In this document: piece after piece, positions 1 through 17,616 of the stretch | Layout of the letters: every line of letters begins with the position of its first letter | Numbering within the stretch: the stretch's first letter is position 1 | IMG/VR virus record: IMGVR_UViG_3300033995_000182 | Coordinates: 1 to 32,966 of that record | Direction: 5' to 3' (one strand) | DNA length: 32,966 bases | Origin: a virus | Taxonomy: Duplodnaviria > Caudoviricetes | Translations under genes and position numbers: made by a program | Notes under the pieces: model-generated | Told to the model about the DNA's origin: nothing | Database searches by the model: none | Seen by the model: the letters and a program-made list of their open reading frames with translations, nothing else

Positions 1-12
1 GGGAAAGAATAT

Positions 13-88
13 ACCAGGGTAGCTCAGCGGTAGAGCGGGAGGCTCATAACCTCAAGGTCGGTGGTTCAAATCCACCCCTCTGGTACCA
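13..88 (+). tRNA. tRNA-CAT (elongator Met or Ile2)
   Basis: Acceptor ACCAGGG/CTCTGGT-A-CCA, D arm GCTC/GAGC, anticodon loop CT-CAT-AA, T loop TTCAAAT. Lacks initiator hallmarks. Confidence 0.93.
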
Positions 89-93
89 AGTTC

Positions 94-126
94 GGGGGAT
101 TAGCTCATCTGGGAGAGCGCCTGCTT
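94..126 (+). pseudogene. 5' half of a disrupted tRNA-Ala
   Basis: GGGGGATTAGCTCATCTGGGAGAGCGCCTGCTT is a typical tRNA-Ala 5' half (acceptor strand, D arm, 5' anticodon stem). It stops right before the anticodon and runs into TATAAATA. Confidence 0.88.
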
Positions 127-133
127 ATAAATA
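126..133 (+). promoter_or_regulatory. T4-type late promoter for HNH gene 1
   Basis: Exact TATAAATA, followed by AAGGAG SD and ATG at 155. Confidence 0.75.
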
Positions 134-154
134 AACAAAAGGAGATTCATTCTG

Positions 155-712
155 ATGTTTATATGTAAGTTCTGCAAAAAAGAATATAATATGAATGCTG
201 GCGGCATGGTTCATCAAAATCAATGTAAGTTAAATCCTGATAGAGTATCATATCAATTGGGTAGGACTGCTTGGAATAAAGGTAAGACTTCTGATTCGGA
301 TCCAAGAATATCTGCACTTTCTGCTAAAGTTTCTATAGCAATGAGAGGAAAGAAACCAGGAAATTGGAATCCAAACAGAGATAAGTTAAGTCAATATAGA
401 ACAGATTGCACATTTAAATTTTCAGTATATAATTATCCTAAAGAATTTAATCTTTCTTTAATTGAAGAAAGCGGCTGGTATAAAGCCAAAAATCGAGGTG
501 ATAATTTATACGGTATATCTAGAGATCATATGATTTCAGTTAAATATGGTTGGGAAAATAATATAGATCCAAAGATCATCTCTCACCCTGCAAATTGCAA
601 ATTAATGATTCATGGAGATAATGTGAGAAAATATTCAAACAATTCTATTTCTTTAGAAGAACTTCTTTATAAAATAGAACAATGGAATTCTAAATACGGG
701 GACGTAAGCTAA
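155..712 (+). CDS. HNH-type homing endonuclease with N-terminal Zn-finger/NUMOD-like DNA-binding region
   Basis: CKFC..H...C N-terminus, AWNKG NUMOD-like motif, C-terminal RDH...HPANC...H..N HNH-like motif. AT-rich. Stop codon lies inside the downstream tRNA-Ala. Confidence 0.75.
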   Translation: MFICKFCKKEYNMNAGGMVHQNQCKLNPDRVSYQLGRTAWNKGKTSDSDPRISALSAKVSIAMRGKKPGNWNPNRDKLSQYRTDCTFKFSVYNYPKEFNLSLIEESGWYKAKNRGDNLYGISRDHMISVKYGWENNIDPKIISHPANCKLMIHGDNVRKYSNNSISLEELLYKIEQWNSKYGDVS

Positions 713-771
713 CGGGAAACTGGCGCCTTTGCAAGGCGCACTTGAGGGTTCGATTCCCTCCGTCTCCACCA
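698..771 (+). tRNA. tRNA-Ala(TGC), replacement copy
   Basis: Acceptor GGGGACG/CGTCTCC-A-CCA with G3:U70, anticodon stem GCGCC/GGCGC with loop TT-TGC-AA, T arm GAGGG-TTCGATT-CCCTC. D arm is weak. Confidence 0.9.
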
Positions 772-775
772 GTTC

Positions 776-809
776 GAGGTGGTCGGTTCGAGTCCGACAT
801 TCTCCACCA
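776..809 (+). pseudogene. 3' half of the disrupted tRNA-Ala
   Basis: G-AGGTG-GTCGG-TTCGAGT-CCGAC-ATTCTCC-ACCA. ATTCTCC pairs with GGGGGAT at 94-100, including G3:U70. Confidence 0.88.
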
Positions 810-811
810 AA

Positions 812-876
812 ATTCGACGTCGCTTGCGGGAGCCACTGCGCCGGATCATGGCCGGTTCGACACCGGGACGTCGAAT
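812..876 (+). ncRNA. tRNA-like element lacking a normal anticodon arm and CCA
   Basis: 10-bp closing stem ATTCGACGTC/GACGTCGAAT, D-like hairpin GCTT-GCGG-GAGC, T-like arm CCGG-TTCGACA-CCGG. Confidence 0.45.
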
Positions 877-884
877 ACTTAAAT

Positions 885-960
885 GCCTCGGTAGCTCAGT
901 TGGTAGAGCATCGGTTTGAAGAACCGAGTGTCGGCGGTTCGACCCCGTCCCGAGGCACCA
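885..960 (+). tRNA. tRNA-Phe(GAA)
   Basis: Acceptor GCCTCGG/CCGAGGC-A-CCA, anticodon stem TCGGT/ACCGA with loop TT-GAA-GA. Confidence 0.95.
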
Positions 961-975
961 TTTTAAGGGTTATTC

Positions 976-1680
976 ATGAAAGATAAACTGTCTATTGTTA
1001 TTCCTTGTAAAAACGAGGAAAATTATATCTCATGGCTTCTTGAAAATCTTAAAATTCAAGAAGGCATTGAAGATGTTAAGATATATATAGCAGATGCATC
1101 AACAGATTCAACTCGAAGTGTAATTAAGAAAAATAGTAAGGACTTAAATATAAGTATCATTGAAGGTGGTCCAGTATCGACTGCTAAAAATAATGGTGCA
1201 AAACTTGTAACAACGCCTTATATTCTTTTTATTGATTCTGATGTTAGGTTCTTTCAAAAGACAGTTATTAAAGATACTGTAAAACTTTTGGAAGAAAATA
1301 ATCTAGATCTTATCGGTCTAAAGATCAAATGTTATGATGATTCCATAAGAACATCTTTAGGATTTATGTTGTTTAATGTTATCAATAAGATCCTATCTTA
1401 TTGGTGTCCTTTTGCTGTTGGGGCGTATATGCTGACTAGAACAGATAAGTTTAATAAACTAGGCGGGTTTCCTGCTAAATATGCTACATCTGAAGATTTC
1501 TTCCTATCCAAGAAATACAAACCTAACAAGTTTATGATCGCTGATCATTACTTTGGTCAAGATAGTCGTAGATTTAAGAAAATGGGTTATCTAGGTATGA
1601 GTTGGTATTTGATTAAAAACTTCCTAAATAGAAACAACGAAAAACATTGGAAGAATATAGATGGCAAAAAATACTGGTAA
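976..1680 (+). CDS. Family 2 glycosyltransferase
   Basis: LSIVIPCKNEE start, DASTDST, A.NNGA, FIDSD (DxD) and SED motifs. Confidence 0.9.
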   Translation: MKDKLSIVIPCKNEENYISWLLENLKIQEGIEDVKIYIADASTDSTRSVIKKNSKDLNISIIEGGPVSTAKNNGAKLVTTPYILFIDSDVRFFQKTVIKDTVKLLEENNLDLIGLKIKCYDDSIRTSLGFMLFNVINKILSYWCPFAVGAYMLTRTDKFNKLGGFPAKYATSEDFFLSKKYKPNKFMIADHYFGQDSRRFKKMGYLGMSWYLIKNFLNRNNEKHWKNIDGKKYW

Positions 1681-2410
1681 ATATAAATCGGTTTTCATCT
1701 CTGATCTGCATCTTGGTTCTAAGCACTGCAACTCCGAAGAACTCTTGACATTCCTATCTAAAATCCAGACAGATAAATTATATCTGGTGGGAGACATTCT
1801 GGATATGTGGCGTTTAAAAAAGAAGTGGTATTGGCCTAAGGCACACAATCAGATCTTAAGAAAGATTCTCAAGATATCTGAGAAGACTGAAGTCGTATAT
1901 GTTACCGGCAATCATGATGAGATATTTAGAAGTTTTCCAAATATTAGGATCGGACGAATATCAGTTGAACATCGATGCGTATATATAGGATTAGATGGTA
2001 AACGGTATCTTGTGATTCATGGTGACCTATTTGATAACCTAATGAGAACAAAAACAGGTCGCATGATTATGCATCTCGGAGACTTTGCATACGACTCATT
2101 GATTTATATCAATAAAATCATCAATGCAGCCCGTAGAATGTTGAGAATGCAACCTTGGAGTTTGGCTAAATACTTAAAGCGTAGAGCTAAGTTGGCAGCA
2201 AACTATATCGGTGATTTTGAAAAAGAAATGACTCTCTACTGTCAGAAAAAAGGTTATGATGGTATTATATGTGGTCATATCCATCATGCAGAGATTACGT
2301 CGTATGACGGTATTGTCTATATGAATGATGGTGACTGGTGTGAAAGTTGTACTGCACTTGTAGAAACAGTGGACGGCATTTGGAAGATTATTAAAACATC
2401 AGATTTATAA
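1661..2410 (+). CDS. Calcineurin-like metallophosphoesterase, LpxH2/PlcP (UDP-2,3-diacylglucosamine hydrolase-like) family
   Basis: SDLHLG, GDILD, GNHD, HGD, CGHIH and NDGDWCESCTALVE motifs. Confidence 0.88.
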   Translation: MAKNTGKYKSVFISDLHLGSKHCNSEELLTFLSKIQTDKLYLVGDILDMWRLKKKWYWPKAHNQILRKILKISEKTEVVYVTGNHDEIFRSFPNIRIGRISVEHRCVYIGLDGKRYLVIHGDLFDNLMRTKTGRMIMHLGDFAYDSLIYINKIINAARRMLRMQPWSLAKYLKRRAKLAANYIGDFEKEMTLYCQKKGYDGIICGHIHHAEITSYDGIVYMNDGDWCESCTALVETVDGIWKIIKTSDL

Positions 2411-2411
2411 T

Positions 2412-2488
2412 GCCCGTGTAGTCCAATTGGTAGAGGCGCCTGGTTTAGGTCCAGGATGTTGGGGGTTCGAGTCCCTCCACGGGTACCA
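2412..2488 (+). tRNA. tRNA-Leu(TAG) with short variable loop
   Basis: Acceptor GCCCGTG/CACGGGT-A-CCA, anticodon stem CCTGG/CCAGG with loop TT-TAG-GT, variable region only ATGTT. Confidence 0.88.
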
Positions 2489-2496
2489 AGTTTAAT

Positions 2497-2521
2497 GCCC
2501 GATTAGCTCAGCGGTAGAGCA
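2497..2521 (+). pseudogene. 5' fragment of a disrupted tRNA (probably Val)
   Basis: GCCCGAT-TA-GCTC-AGCGGTA-GAGC-A is an acceptor strand plus complete D arm, followed abruptly by AT-rich TTATAAATTTATAAATA. Confidence 0.85.
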
Positions 2522-2530
2522 TTATAAATT

Positions 2531-2538
2531 TATAAATA
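2531..2538 (+). promoter_or_regulatory. T4-type late promoter for HNH gene 2
   Basis: Exact TATAAATA, followed by TAAGGAG SD and ATG at 2566. Confidence 0.75.
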
Positions 2539-2565
2539 ACTTAGTAATTGAGCTAAGGAGTTTAT

Positions 2566-3093
2566 ATGCATAAGTGTGAAACATGTGACAAAGAATTTGA
2601 TAGTCATCGCAAACTAAATGGGCATAAAAGCGTACATCGTGAAGGTGGAAGGTATTCTGTTTCACGTAGAACTAAAGAATCCATATCGTGTCCAAACTGT
2701 AAAACTTTGACATTTAATGCTAAATATTGTAGTAATAAATGTCAACATGAACATGAATGGAAAGAACGGTTTAATCAAATACAATCCGGTGAAGTTCTCG
2801 CTGAACAACATATGAAACGTTATTTGTTTGAAACGCGCGGTGAATGTTGTGCGGAGTGTGGTATAGGTTCTGAATGGAATAATAAACCTCTTACTTTGCA
2901 GATGGATCATATAGATGGAAATAGTGATAATAATTTACTAGACAATTTACAAATTCTGTGTCCTAATTGCCATACACAGACACATACATGGTGTGGTAGA
3001 AATAAGAAGAATACTAAACGCAATAAGTATAATAGAATTTATAGATCACGGGTCCTTAACTCAGTTGGTAGAGTGCATCCTTTACACGGATGA
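2566..3093 (+). CDS. HNH homing endonuclease with C2H2 zinc finger
   Basis: CETC...H...H zinc finger, CPNC/YCSNKC, CAECG...LQMDHIDGNSDNNLLDNLQILCPNCH canonical HNH. Stop TGA lies inside tRNA-Val. Confidence 0.9.
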   Translation: MHKCETCDKEFDSHRKLNGHKSVHREGGRYSVSRRTKESISCPNCKTLTFNAKYCSNKCQHEHEWKERFNQIQSGEVLAEQHMKRYLFETRGECCAECGIGSEWNNKPLTLQMDHIDGNSDNNLLDNLQILCPNCHTQTHTWCGRNKKNTKRNKYNRIYRSRVLNSVGRVHPLHG

Positions 3094-3125
3094 AGTCGGC
3101 GGTTCGAACCCGTCAGGACCTACCA
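3050..3125 (+). tRNA. tRNA-Val(TAC), replacement copy
   Basis: Acceptor GGGTCCT/AGGACCT-A-CCA, anticodon stem CATCC/GGATG with loop TT-TAC-AC, T arm GGCGG-TTCGAAC-CCGTC. Confidence 0.95.
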
Positions 3126-3132
3126 TATTTCC

Positions 3133-3164
3133 GGTCGGCGGTTCAATCCCGTCATCGGGTACCA
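3133..3164 (+). pseudogene. 3' fragment of the disrupted tRNA
   Basis: GGTC-GGCGG-TTCAATC-CCGTC-ATCGGGT-ACCA. ATCGGGT pairs over all 7 bp with GCCCGAT at 2497-2503. Confidence 0.87.
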
Positions 3165-3167
3165 GTT

Positions 3168-3305
3168 TTGAGGTAAGGAAAGCACGTTAGGGGGACGGAT
3201 CGGGCCGCAACCGACTTGCTCTATAGTGACCGACTGATCATCGGTAAAAGGAGAATGGGAGTCGTCGGTGGTTTTTCCGGACGGCGGATACCTCACCTGC
3301 CTCAA
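3168..3305 (+). ncRNA. Candidate structured ncRNA (~138 nt) in the tRNA array
   Basis: Closing stem TTGAGGTA-A-GG/CCTGCCTCAA; internal hairpins TCGG/CCGA, ACCGA/TCGGT, GTCGTC/GACGGC. GC-rich, no credible ORF. Confidence 0.55.
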
Positions 3306-3314
3306 TTTGATTAT

Positions 3315-3391
3315 ACTCTCGTAGCTCAACTGGATAGAGCGCTCGCCTACGAAGCGAAAGGTTACAGGTTCGAGTCCTGTTGAGAGTGCCA
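3315..3391 (+). tRNA. tRNA-Arg(ACG)
   Basis: Acceptor ACTCTCG/TGAGAGT-G-CCA, anticodon loop CT-ACG-AA. Confidence 0.93.
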
Positions 3392-3411
3392 TTTTATGAA
3401 GGAGAATAACT

Positions 3412-3851: not shown

Positions 3852-4152
3852 ATCTCGTGTGGTATCCTACCATCACACGGTCTTATAAGGGGTAGGATAT
3901 GAATCTAGTTGTCCGTCGGCTAGAGACGAGATTAATGTGGAGACTCTTATGGGTAAAGCATAGGGCGGACCGTTTTCATAGATCTGGGTCGACGGACCTG
4001 GTAAGAAGTGTGACTGAACTATCCTCTGTCGATGGGGATAAGGTAGACTCGGTGGGCGGTCCCCTCCCTAACCAGGAACGAGTCGTGGGTTGAGAATTAC
4101 ATAGTAATTGACTGGACCTTGGAGGTATAACTGAATCCTCCCACTTCGCTTA
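3852..4152 (+). ncRNA. Candidate large ornate ncRNA (~300 nt) with pseudoknots
   Basis: At least nine complementary pairs, including crossing long-range ones (see findings). No ORF with an SD. Confidence 0.6.
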
Positions 4153-4525: not shown

Positions 4526-4557
4526 AAAATGCGGCTGGGTGATCCTGGCCGCATTTT
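4526..4557 (+). terminator. Stem-loop/terminator immediately upstream of an early promoter
   Basis: AAAATGCGGC...GCCGCATTTT inverted repeat. Confidence 0.65.
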
Positions 4558-4561
4558 AGTA

Positions 4562-4590
4562 TGTACATATTATCAAAACTGTCGTAGTAT
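4562..4590 (+). promoter_or_regulatory. Early promoter
   Basis: TGTACA-N17-TAGTAT. Confidence 0.75.
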
Positions 4591-4614
4591 GAATAATAAC
4601 GAATGGAGATTGAC

Positions 4615-4935
4615 ATGATCAAGGTTTACCAAATCCAGCTTACCGATGCAGAATTTTGGATGATCAACAGCGGCGAAACCAGTCCGAAGATCAAGGCATA
4701 CTTTGATCGTTCGTTCGACTCGATGTTCAAGGCTGAGAACTTTCAGTACTACACCCGTGTTGCTGACGTTTATGCCAATGATATGGAAGATGCCTTCCGT
4801 CTGATGAACCTCTGGGAACAGCCTGAGTTGGTCGTTAAGCTTGGTCGTTGCTCTTCGATGTCGGTTGGTGATATCGTTGAGATGGATAACGGCGAACGCT
4901 ATCGTTGCGCTTCGTTTGGCTTTGAGGAGATTTGA
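4615..4935 (+). CDS. Hypothetical protein, YodL-like motif
   Basis: GGAG SD; KVYQI start and SMSVGDIV motif. Confidence 0.7.
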   Translation: MIKVYQIQLTDAEFWMINSGETSPKIKAYFDRSFDSMFKAENFQYYTRVADVYANDMEDAFRLMNLWEQPELVVKLGRCSSMSVGDIVEMDNGERYRCASFGFEEI

Positions 4936-15731: not shown

Positions 15732-15754
15732 TTTCATTCTTTTGAAAATAGTTG

Positions 15755-15783
15755 TGTACATATTATGCGTTATGTGCTAATAT
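15755..15783 (+). promoter_or_regulatory. Early promoter (repeat module copy 1)
   Basis: AAAATAGTTG-TGTACA-N17-TAATAT. Confidence 0.8.
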
Positions 15784-15807
15784 GAATAATAAGCTAAGGA
15801 GATTGTC

Positions 15808-16119
15808 ATGACCAAGTTCACCAAGGAAACTCTCAGCTACCACGGCGGCTACCTCCACTATCAGCCGCACGCTGATAACTACTACGAAGGTCGTAAGTTC
15901 GTTGCTCGCTTCAAGCATCGTGGTCCGGTCACCAAAGCGAAGTTCGTCAAGGCCCTGATCAAGCACTACACGGTCGAAGAGTACTTTGCACGCCTCGGTG
16001 GTTCTGCAAATGCTCAGGGTGAAGCTCCTCTGCAGATCCTCATGAATGACGGTATCCTGGTGTTTCATGCTGATGAGAAGTTTGGCGGTTACTTCGTTCT
16101 GGACGGAAAGGTTATCTGA
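15808..16119 (+). CDS. Hypothetical early protein (103 aa)
   Basis: TAAGGAG SD; genome-typical codon usage. Confidence 0.8.
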   Translation: MTKFTKETLSYHGGYLHYQPHADNYYEGRKFVARFKHRGPVTKAKFVKALIKHYTVEEYFARLGGSANAQGEAPLQILMNDGILVFHADEKFGGYFVLDGKVI

Positions 16120-16252: not shown

Positions 16253-16430
16253 AATGCAACAGATTGCATACGCAGTCGTCGGTGACGGCAAGTTCGGATT
16301 CAAGATCTTCGGTCAAACCTTCGAGACAGAAGGTTTGACCGAGTACTGGGAGAATCGTGGATACCAGACTATTCCTGTCTACGTCGAGATGACCGACGAA
16401 CTCAAAGAATTTTACTCCTACTCAAAATAG
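16119..16430 (+). CDS. Hypothetical protein (alternative start at 16254)
   Basis: TGATG coupling; a second SD/ATG in the repeat copy. Confidence 0.65.
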   Translation: MEGCRNVKLQTERPDGPKVIPLTNATSGIHPNYSVVTRSGRKGYLMQQIAYAVVGDGKFGFKIFGQTFETEGLTEYWENRGYQTIPVYVEMTDELKEFYSYSK

Positions 16431-16433
16431 TTG

Positions 16434-16462
16434 TGTACATATTATCAAAAGTATGCTAATAT
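16434..16462 (+). promoter_or_regulatory. Early promoter (repeat module copy 2)
   Basis: AAAATAGTTG-TGTACA-N17-TAATAT. Confidence 0.8.
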
Positions 16463-16487
16463 GAATAATAAGCTAAGGAGATTGAAA

Positions 16488-16754
16488 ATGTTTAATGTTC
16501 GAATGAATAAGTTTGGTAACAAAGTAGCTAACGGTAACTTCTCTATGACGTTCGCTAATGGCTACAGTGTCTCTGTGGCTATGGGTGACGGCACTTATAG
16601 CGATGGTAATTCGGAAGACGGTTTTACCTCTGTTGAAGTCGCTGCATGGGATGCTGATGGCAACTGGGTTCAACTGGGTCATGGCGATACGGTTGTCGGT
16701 TGGCAGTCACCTGAAAAGGTTCTGGCTATAATGAATAAAGTGGCAGCAATGTAA
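16488..16754 (+). CDS. Hypothetical early protein
   Basis: TAAGGAG SD before ATG 16488; FANGYSVSV and VEVA motifs. Confidence 0.8.
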   Translation: MFNVRMNKFGNKVANGNFSMTFANGYSVSVAMGDGTYSDGNSEDGFTSVEVAAWDADGNWVQLGHGDTVVGWQSPEKVLAIMNKVAAM

Positions 16755-16782
16755 TTTAATGCGTGCATAGCTAAAATAGTTG

Positions 16783-16811
16783 TGTACATATTATGAAATA
16801 TATGGTACATT
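16783..16811 (+). promoter_or_regulatory. Early promoter
   Basis: AAAATAGTTG-TGTACA-N17-TACATT. Confidence 0.75.
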
Positions 16812-16816
16812 GGCTT

Positions 16817-16909
16817 ATACGATGGTGAAAGGCACGAATGGTCTTTCGTAAATTGGGTTGGGCTTCGGCTCTGTAAATTCCCTCAGTGGACCGCCTTCCA
16901 CCATCGTAT
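16817..16909 (+). ncRNA. Candidate early small RNA or structured leader
   Basis: Stem ATACGATGGTG-A-AAGGC/GCCTT-C-CACCATCGTAT starting at the predicted TSS; inner ACGAA/TTCGT and C-UUCG-G hairpins. Confidence 0.55.
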
Positions 16910-16925
16910 CTTTGTGGAGATTACT

Positions 16926-17330
16926 ATGACAATGCATCTTTTAGGTCCTGCTTACACCACCACTAATACGCGTGTACGAAAGACCAAGACTAGTGCCACG
17001 CAGTACCATAAGTACTATATTGATTGGCGTGATGACTGCAAGTTCAACAAGCGGCTTGGTACAGCGCCAAAGACTCTAGACGAGTACATTGCGTATTGTC
17101 AGGGAAAGTACAAGCCAAAGCTCCGTGGCACACCGTTGCCAGAGTATAATGTATCCAACCACCGTGAACGCTATCCATCACAGACCGACACTGGTGTCAC
17201 ATTTGCCAAGAAGCCAAACGTCTACACAGGCGATAAGTTGCTAGGTATTGCCACTATGCATAAGTCCAACATGGTTCCTGTCTTCAGTCAGGAGGATGCT
17301 GAAGAGATTGCTAAGATGCGCCGGGGCTAA
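16926..17330 (+). CDS. Hypothetical protein of T4-like phage type
   Basis: GGAG SD; C-terminal YTGDKLLGIATMHKSNMVPVF motif. Confidence 0.8.
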   Translation: MTMHLLGPAYTTTNTRVRKTKTSATQYHKYYIDWRDDCKFNKRLGTAPKTLDEYIAYCQGKYKPKLRGTPLPEYNVSNHRERYPSQTDTGVTFAKKPNVYTGDKLLGIATMHKSNMVPVFSQEDAEEIAKMRRG

Positions 17331-17338
17331 AATAGTTG

Positions 17339-17367
17339 TGTACAAATTATCCAAAATATCGTACTGT
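17339..17367 (+). promoter_or_regulatory. Early promoter
   Basis: AAAATAGTTG-TGTACA-N17-TACTGT. Confidence 0.7.
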
Positions 17368-17391
17368 GAATAATAACAAGTGGAGATTATT

Positions 17392-17616
17392 ATGAACCAA
17401 CGTCCTGGCAAGACTCATTCGGCTGCGCTCGGTGATAGTCAGAATGTACCTCTTCGCTCTCTTATCGATTATGTCAAGAATGCACGAGTTGCTCTCAACG
17501 AAACCGACCATGAGGATGCGGCGTATTATTTCGAAATGTTCGAAGACTTCCTTCGGACCGAGGTGGCAAACGGAACCAAACCGTTGTCGTTCACGTACAA
17601 GTCACTTGGTCTATAA
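17392..17616 (+). CDS. Hypothetical protein
   Basis: GGAG SD before ATG 17392. Confidence 0.75.
   Translation: MNQRPGKTHSAALGDSQNVPLRSLIDYVKNARVALNETDHEDAAYYFEMFEDFLRTEVANGTKPLSFTYKSLGL

Follow-up and report, generated by a model that had tools for sequence, protein, structure and literature searches.

A putative homing-endonuclease cassette carrying a replacement tRNA-Ala within a split phage tRNA-Ala(TGC) gene

What kind of element breaks a phage tRNA-Ala(TGC) gene at its anticodon and leaves a complete second tRNA-Ala between the two halves? This arrangement lies in the tRNA array of the stretch of DNA analysed here (32,966 nt, IMG/VR record IMGVR_UViG_3300033995_000182; hereafter, the window), which, judged from its sequence, is part of a T4-like phage from a lake. 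In the reading we favor, with a probability of roughly 0.72, positions 127–775 are a free-standing homing-endonuclease cassette that brings along a replacement tRNA-Ala for the gene broken by its insertion.

The window encodes homologs of gp43, UvsX, and gp41, and the best matches of its gp43 are cyanophage polymerases, at ~50% identity at most. Its first ~3.7 kb form a tRNA array in which ARAGORN called seven genes. Positions 1–3400 are listed in 24 public sequencing runs, all of them lake or freshwater metagenomes, and we compared eight of these with the window (X4, X8, X12, X13, X17, X19, X20, and X24; samples of 2016–2024), none of which was marked as a possible source of it. The octamer TATAAATA, which we take to be a T4-type late promoter motif, occurs eight times in the window, always on the plus strand, compared with 1.6 expected copies; eight copies were reached in none of 100 shuffles. 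Outside the array, a manA RNA at 3985–4151 (58.1 bits) exceeds the Rfam cut-off, and a 67-nt intergenic motif whose 3′ end is a ribosome-binding site is repeated at 4552–4618, 15745–15811, 16424–16490, 16773–16839, and 17329–17395; it probably represents an early promoter.

Exact replacement of nine nucleotides in a tRNA-Ala gene

A first-pass annotation had proposed that the 5′ half of the tRNA ends at CCTGC-TT, that its last T doubles as the first T of TATAAATA, that the 3′ half resumes at the last anticodon-stem base, and that about 9 nt are lost in between. The sequence bears out each of these points (Table 1): T126 is shared with the promoter motif, and the 3′ half starts at G43 and continues through the variable loop, the T arm, and CCA. 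The loss can now be given exactly, as public contigs that join 126 to 776 and the intact allele of a related viral contig, L005, both place TGCAAGCAG at the gap. L005 has the tRNA order of the window, and its tRNA-Ala matches the two halves at 33/33 and 32/34 positions with TGCAAGCAG between them; in total, four viral contigs carry the window's 5′ half within an intact tRNA-Ala(TGC). In a profile scan, the old 3′ half was the best orphan 3′ half. The 4 bases in front of it resemble the spacers of the tRNA array (AGTTC at 89–93) and may well derive from one.

Table 1 Features of the split tRNA-Ala gene and its insert (positions in the window)
Feature	Position	Strand	Evidence
Old tRNA-Ala(TGC), 5′ half, tRNA positions 1–33; putative left homology arm	94–126	+	33/33 identity to intact tRNA-Ala of L002–L005; contigs branch at 126
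Insert, 649 nt, replacing the 9 nt TGCAAGCAG (tRNA positions 34–42)	127–775	+	126–776 joint in X8, X17, X24, X13; loose ends in X4, X19, X20
TATAAATA, presumed late promoter motif; starts with T33 of the old tRNA	126–133	+	8 copies in the window
AAGGAG, ribosome-binding-site-like, 10 nt 5′ of ATG	139–144	+	Sequence
185-aa ORF, predicted HNH (His-Me finger) nuclease	155–712	+	Conserved residues, models, weak fold matches
Cargo: complete 74-nt tRNA-Ala(TGC), G3:U70, encoded CCA	698–771	+	ARAGORN; cloverleaf; stem-pair covariation
GTTC, 4 bases separating the cargo CCA from the old 3′ half	772–775	+	Sequence
Old tRNA-Ala, 3′ half, tRNA positions 43–76; putative right homology arm	776–809	+	32/34 identity to L005 and L003 alleles

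G3:U70 marks alanine, and the annotation's statement that both old halves retain this pair was confirmed by reading the sequence. So was its assignment of the complete gene between them, which ARAGORN calls tRNA-Ala(TGC) and which folds as a cloverleaf with G3:U70 in place. Amino-acid identity is thus matched between the split tRNA and its replacement, as judged from the ARAGORN call, the fold, the L005 allele, and the contigs. In sum, 649 nt take the place of 9 nt with exact ends, on which the public-contig joints and the L005 allele agree. The observation is not a product of chance: the split of the tRNA-Ala gene and the exact replacement are real. An automatic search for a clean pair of halves retrieved only the window among 121 clusters of related loci; another locus, L161, is a looser second case.

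The same samples hold the gene in both states. Contigs with the cassette are present in all eight runs and differ from the window at no base (over 97–805 in five runs; over shorter stretches in X17, X24, and X20). The empty allele occurs at the same flanks in seven of the eight, the exception being X12, which has the cassette and no such joint. In X8, X17, X24, and X13, contigs run from 126 to 776 via TGCAAGCAG, and in X4, X19, and X20 the letters of TGCAAGCAG appear as loose contig ends on both sides. Three long contigs—one of 1725 nt in X24 (776–2461 plus 39 further bases), one of 666 nt in X17 (1–126 plus 39 further bases, 9 + 30), and one of 1279 nt in X20 that starts with 25 letters of the empty allele—argue that this allele belongs to the phage of the window and not only to other organisms. 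Occupied and empty alleles therefore coexist in runs of 2016–2024. The depth of the cassette relative to its flank ranged from 40.6/158 in X19 and 6/20 in X24 up to 10.7/15 in X4 and 7.7/8–11 in X20, values that are contig means and serve as a rough guide only. No sweep of the cassette was seen, its share of depth being intermediate, without fixation, across eight runs and eight years.

Other parts of the array deserve mention in their own right. Between 976 and 2410 lie low-GC genes for a glycosyltransferase (GT2) and a metallophosphoesterase (GC 0.31 and 0.36). Positions 812–877 adopt a tRNA-like fold (z −2.0) that combines a long closing stem with a T-arm-like hairpin, were called by neither ARAGORN nor Rfam, and possibly encode a small stable RNA or a degenerate tRNA. 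A second cassette, laid out like the first, occupies 2495–3164: the 5′ half of a tRNA-Val gene is followed by TATAAATA, a classical HNH ORF (2566–3093), a complete tRNA-Val(TAC) at 3050–3125, and the remaining 3′ half of the old gene. L324 has this cassette at 100% identity, with different tRNAs around it; in L325/L326, an 89% identical version is lodged in another tRNA-Val body; and in L328/L329 it terminates in a chimeric tRNA. Finally, 3165–3317 is skipped, with 4 bases in its place, in contigs of all four runs from one comparison set, and is absent from L324; it is a third presence/absence polymorphism of the tRNA array.

A predicted nuclease family beside tRNA-Ala(TGC) and tRNA-Cys(GCA) genes

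The ORF between promoter motif and cargo has a GC content of 0.31 (window, 0.43), an N-terminal part with a C2H2-like finger and a WNKG segment, and a conserved C-terminal domain; its last four codons and stop fall inside the cargo tRNA. A Pfam scan assigned it to no named family and gave no match to PF01844, and neither Pfam nor PHROGs scans returned a GIY-YIG family. A SegB-type N-terminal GIY-YIG domain is absent, and the C-terminal domain shows a DH..N..N pattern. Among 120 family sequences, R123, D124, H125, N147, N156, and K159 are invariant. In structural models, D124-H125 lies in strand E121–125, N147 precedes strand 148–152, and N156 sits in a helix. This places a His with a preceding Asp at the end of strand 1, an Asn in the loop, and another in the core helix, which is the catalytic pattern described for His-Me fingers (PMC5714182). 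Among 25 weak fold matches of the domain, 22 were assigned to His-Me nucleases, and an Atlas feature match (0.92) points to a PF01844 cluster. The ORF is hence predicted to encode an HNH (His-Me finger) nuclease of an unnamed phage family. Family members vary at their N-termini, where zinc-finger, HTH, and NUMOD3 modules are attached to the conserved catalytic domain. Distant homologs reside in cultured T4-like phages of Serratia, Erwinia, E. coli, and Acinetobacter; the annotated ones adjoin the tail tube gene (L167, MF036690.1, between gp18 and gp19), which suggests a different target in a culturable system.

The family is tied to particular tRNA genes. We pooled 259 loci from four scans and six annotated records into 163 clusters at 80% identity, of which 142 were usable and 21 were left out because their flanks were too short. 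In 70 of these 142 loci, the tRNA gene directly next to the ORF, on one side or the other, is tRNA-Ala(TGC). Counted by gene, it makes up 71 of 144 adjacent tRNAs and 10 of 542 others (p 1e-44), and, with Ala set aside, tRNA-Cys(GCA) makes up 18 of 73 adjacent and 21 of 532 other tRNAs (p 3e-8); as the loci are related, both p values are too small. Nine other anticodons tested in the 142 loci were not enriched beside the family. In a first set of 104 loci, the Ala gene lay upstream in 42 and downstream in 20, and a pattern search added eight loci with Ala genes missed by ARAGORN (no match in 677 control windows). Among the 37 more distant clusters by themselves, Ala is adjacent in only nine and Cys in 11. 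Where the Ala gene follows the ORF, the stop codon lies inside that tRNA in 21 of 24 loci, ten of them at the window's offset.

Both tRNA genes share a sequence: TGCA is found within the loop of 88/90 Ala and 42/42 Cys genes, and the deletion in the window starts at the first base of TGCA. We infer from this coincidence that the conserved domain cuts at TGCA and that the variable modules select the gene.

Relatives of the cassette also carry tRNA-like sequence in front of the ORF. In 47 of 113 clusters (L010–L162; tRNAs masked), the 120 nt before the ATG contain GTTCRA-N11-TCCA, a motif found in 3/410 controls and at most twice in shuffles. It corresponds to the T loop and acceptor end of tRNA-Ala and keeps the tRNA's own spacing in 45 of the 47; its distance from the ATG is 2–65 nt, and it often coincides with the late promoter. 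Pairing in the T stem does not exceed chance, and the inner bases do not track those of the neighboring tRNA. A protein-binding site—a candidate operator, comparable to that of I-TevI (PMC2988022)—fits this pattern of kept sequence and lost pairing better than a scar. The window's cassette has no such motif; its promoter directly adjoins the old 5′ half and takes its first T from it. Relics of a 5′ half precede the ORF in L027, L134, and L161, and worn ones that end at position 33 in L007 and L019; those of L027, L007, and L019 stop at position 33 like the window, and all three belong to one clade.

The cargo tRNA, homing, and the competing readings

In its fold (z −2.6), the cargo forms three of the four D-stem pairs; in Rfam, it scores better against the tmRNA model (35.7 bits, below the cut-off of 47) than against the tRNA model. 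In three related alleles, despite 5, 5, and 7 two-sided changes, all 17 pairs of the acceptor, anticodon, and T stems are kept, which argues that the cargo is maintained as a tRNA. Its first 30 bases retrieved ten viral loci (L172–L181, two of which look like one phage); the allele is identical in nine and matches at 72/74 positions in the tenth. Most of these loci lack a nuclease gene beside the allele, and only one (L180, the same as L009) has a full family member upstream, just 50% identical to the window's. Two loci have other nuclease ORFs in front of the allele: a classical HNH one in L178, where a short acceptor-end relic comes next after the allele, and a GIY-YIG-like one in L173. The genome collection that we searched did not contain it.

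The cargo had been described as an immune allele with a rewritten anticodon stem. This holds for the outer stem and not for the core, since the nine nucleotides at positions 31–39 are identical in the old and cargo alleles. Nor is divergence as telling as it may seem: the cargo and the intact old-type allele of L005 are 66% identical, within the spread of same-isotype tRNAs at these loci (mean identity 0.57–0.63; nuclease-adjacent Ala, 0.596), and two family members with other N-terminal modules adjoin old-type alleles (L060, and L107, whose adjacent allele is 93% identical to that of L005). Both observations weaken the argument for immunity from divergence, as does a third: the same allele occurs in unrelated phages, mostly without a family nuclease, so that it is more likely a widespread allele that was acquired ready-made than one recoded for the window's nuclease. 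An immune allele is a plausible hypothesis; the cargo may be spared through its flanks.

How, then, would a homing cassette work here? The predicted HNH nuclease would cut the unbroken tRNA-Ala gene of co-infecting sister phages, and the cargo would stand in for the broken gene. The enzyme would be expressed late from the predicted TATAAATA promoter, and its catalytic domain would cut the anticodon loop at TGCA or immediately beside it. These four bases, which Ala(TGC) and Cys(GCA) genes have in common, are the first of those lost at this locus. The initial insertion may have been a non-homologous repair of such a break by a promoter–ORF–tRNA unit from another phage, leaving two halves; from then on, halves and flanks would serve as homology arms, and a cut empty allele would be repaired from an occupied one. 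Insertion would destroy the old site. What spares the cargo may be the differences in its D arm and in the outer part of its anticodon stem, or else a low level of enzyme, which tRNA processing could keep down, since a cut at 698 would sever the message before the ORF's stop codon. In line with Seg/Mob-type enzymes, the gene is missing from the homologous locus (the empty allele of seven runs, and L005), lies in neither an intron nor an intein (no Rfam intron match; anticodon deleted), and joins a catalytic domain to variable DNA-binding modules. Further support comes from the exact replacement with both alleles in the same runs, the tie of the family to Ala and Cys genes, the leader motif and 5′-half relics of its relatives, and the second cassette of this array, whose kind resides in two different tRNA-Val bodies. 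The homing reading is tempered by the lack of a sweep in eight years, the weak fold scores, and an immunity that is not evident.

A one-off illegitimate recombination between tRNA arrays, with a real nuclease that does not recognize the old allele and a block that drifts neutrally, would account for the intermediate depth share without fixation, the widespread cargo allele mostly found without the window's ORF, the uniqueness of the clean split (1/121 clusters), and a left end with just 1 nt of microhomology. However, such a block would have landed in the one tRNA gene to which its family is tied and started exactly at TGCA, relics before the ORF end at the same position 33 in three relatives (of a single clade), and the ORF is unbroken, with all catalytic residues present and no differences in eight runs. 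We therefore regard drift as unlikely. Still less probable is selection on the cargo itself, as a tRNA-Ala that escapes a host anti-tRNA defense or suits the host, with the nuclease a mere vehicle. The 74-nt allele does occur unchanged in unrelated phages, next to other nuclease types (HNH in L178, GIY-YIG-like in L173), and phage tRNAs have been published as counter-defense (PMC11555353, PMC13096335). The empty allele, however, is still common, and the family's tie to Ala and Cys genes would be left unexplained. Moreover, anticodon nucleases usually attack the anticodon loop, which is the same in the cargo and the old allele.

It is very improbable that the ORF encodes an RNase directed against tRNA-Ala of the host or a rival phage, with the cargo as a resistant antidote. 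The tight pairing of the family with tRNA-Ala(TGC) would suit such a pair, as would the fact that some His-Me proteins are toxins (PMC5714182). Against it speak the N-terminal DNA-binding modules, the insertion into the tRNA gene at the DNA level, a leader motif that keeps sequence and not pairing, and the unchanged loop of the cargo. We give almost no credence to an intron or a trans-spliced split tRNA from which the old tRNA is still made. The insert does lie in the anticodon loop, as do bacterial tRNA group I introns, but positions 34–42 including the anticodon are gone, removing 127–775 yields no tRNA, Rfam finds no intron in 60–900 up to E 5, and a full spare tRNA is present.

Beyond the homing cassette itself, we tentatively put forward a wider scheme, at slightly less than even odds: the family homes on the anticodon-loop TGCA, has been switched between Ala(TGC) and Cys(GCA) via module swaps, is autorepressed by means of a pared-down target copy in the leader, and acts in the window as a home-and-rescue drive that segregates with its empty target in a single lake phage population and spreads a ready-made tRNA-Ala between unrelated phages. 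A cassette of this kind would show that a homing endonuclease can settle in a small RNA gene with no self-splicing intron to help it, by bringing a complete substitute, and would offer a reason for mosaic phage tRNA arrays and for identical tRNA alleles across unrelated phages. Because the samples yield the empty as well as the occupied allele to the base, the locus is unusually testable, and the Ala/Cys pattern amounts to a specific cut-site prediction for a nuclease family without a Pfam name.

Relation to known systems

In a literature search, we came across no report of a nuclease that interrupts a phage tRNA gene and supplies a complete substitute; within the scope of this search, the cassette is probably a variant of free-standing homing endonucleases not found in print. 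What the locus contributes is an empty allele known to the base from the population that also holds the cassette, the pattern of Ala and Cys targets, and the family's leader motif.

SegB of phage T4 is a free-standing GIY-YIG homing endonuclease in a tRNA cluster that cuts tRNA genes of relatives without segB (PMC2330249, PMC2988022). The window's ORF resembles it as a free-standing nuclease gene in a T4-type tRNA array and in having its stop codon at the next tRNA, where processing has been proposed to limit SegB expression (PMC2330249). In contrast to the cassette, SegB reads a TpsiC motif common to many tRNAs, cuts at their 3′ ends, and sits between intact tRNA genes, whereas the cassette lies inside its target gene and carries a whole spare. 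The enzymes differ as well: the window's is a predicted HNH nuclease from a family tied to Ala(TGC) and Cys(GCA). HNH endonucleases are also known from phage tRNA arrays, namely F-TflI, II, and IV in that of T5 and further HNH genes among the clustered tRNAs of mycobacteriophages (PMC2330249, PMC5714182, PMC6409571), for which a role in spreading tRNA genes has been proposed. The portions available of these papers describe no split tRNA with a complete replacement for them, and the window's ORF has no PF01844 match.

I-TevI represses itself via an operator (PMC2988022), and, in a similar vein, 47/113 relatives hold a copy of the target's fixed bases before the ATG as a candidate operator; I-TevI, however, is an intron-encoded GIY-YIG enzyme, and the window's cassette lacks the leader motif. 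A parallel to the rescue of a broken gene comes from fungal mitochondrial mORFs, which bring a replacement gene end in Allomyces macrogynus atp6 and in Glomus atp6, atp9, cox2, and nad3 (PMC3630166). There, too, an endonuclease gene inserts in a host gene, foreign sequence restores function, and the native part is displaced downstream, as is part of the old tRNA in the window. The mORFs, however, are LAGLIDADG or GIY-YIG enzymes that target protein genes and supply the 3′ part only, fused to the native 5′ part, whereas the window combines a phage tRNA target with a complete spare downstream of the nuclease and two old halves that are both dead.
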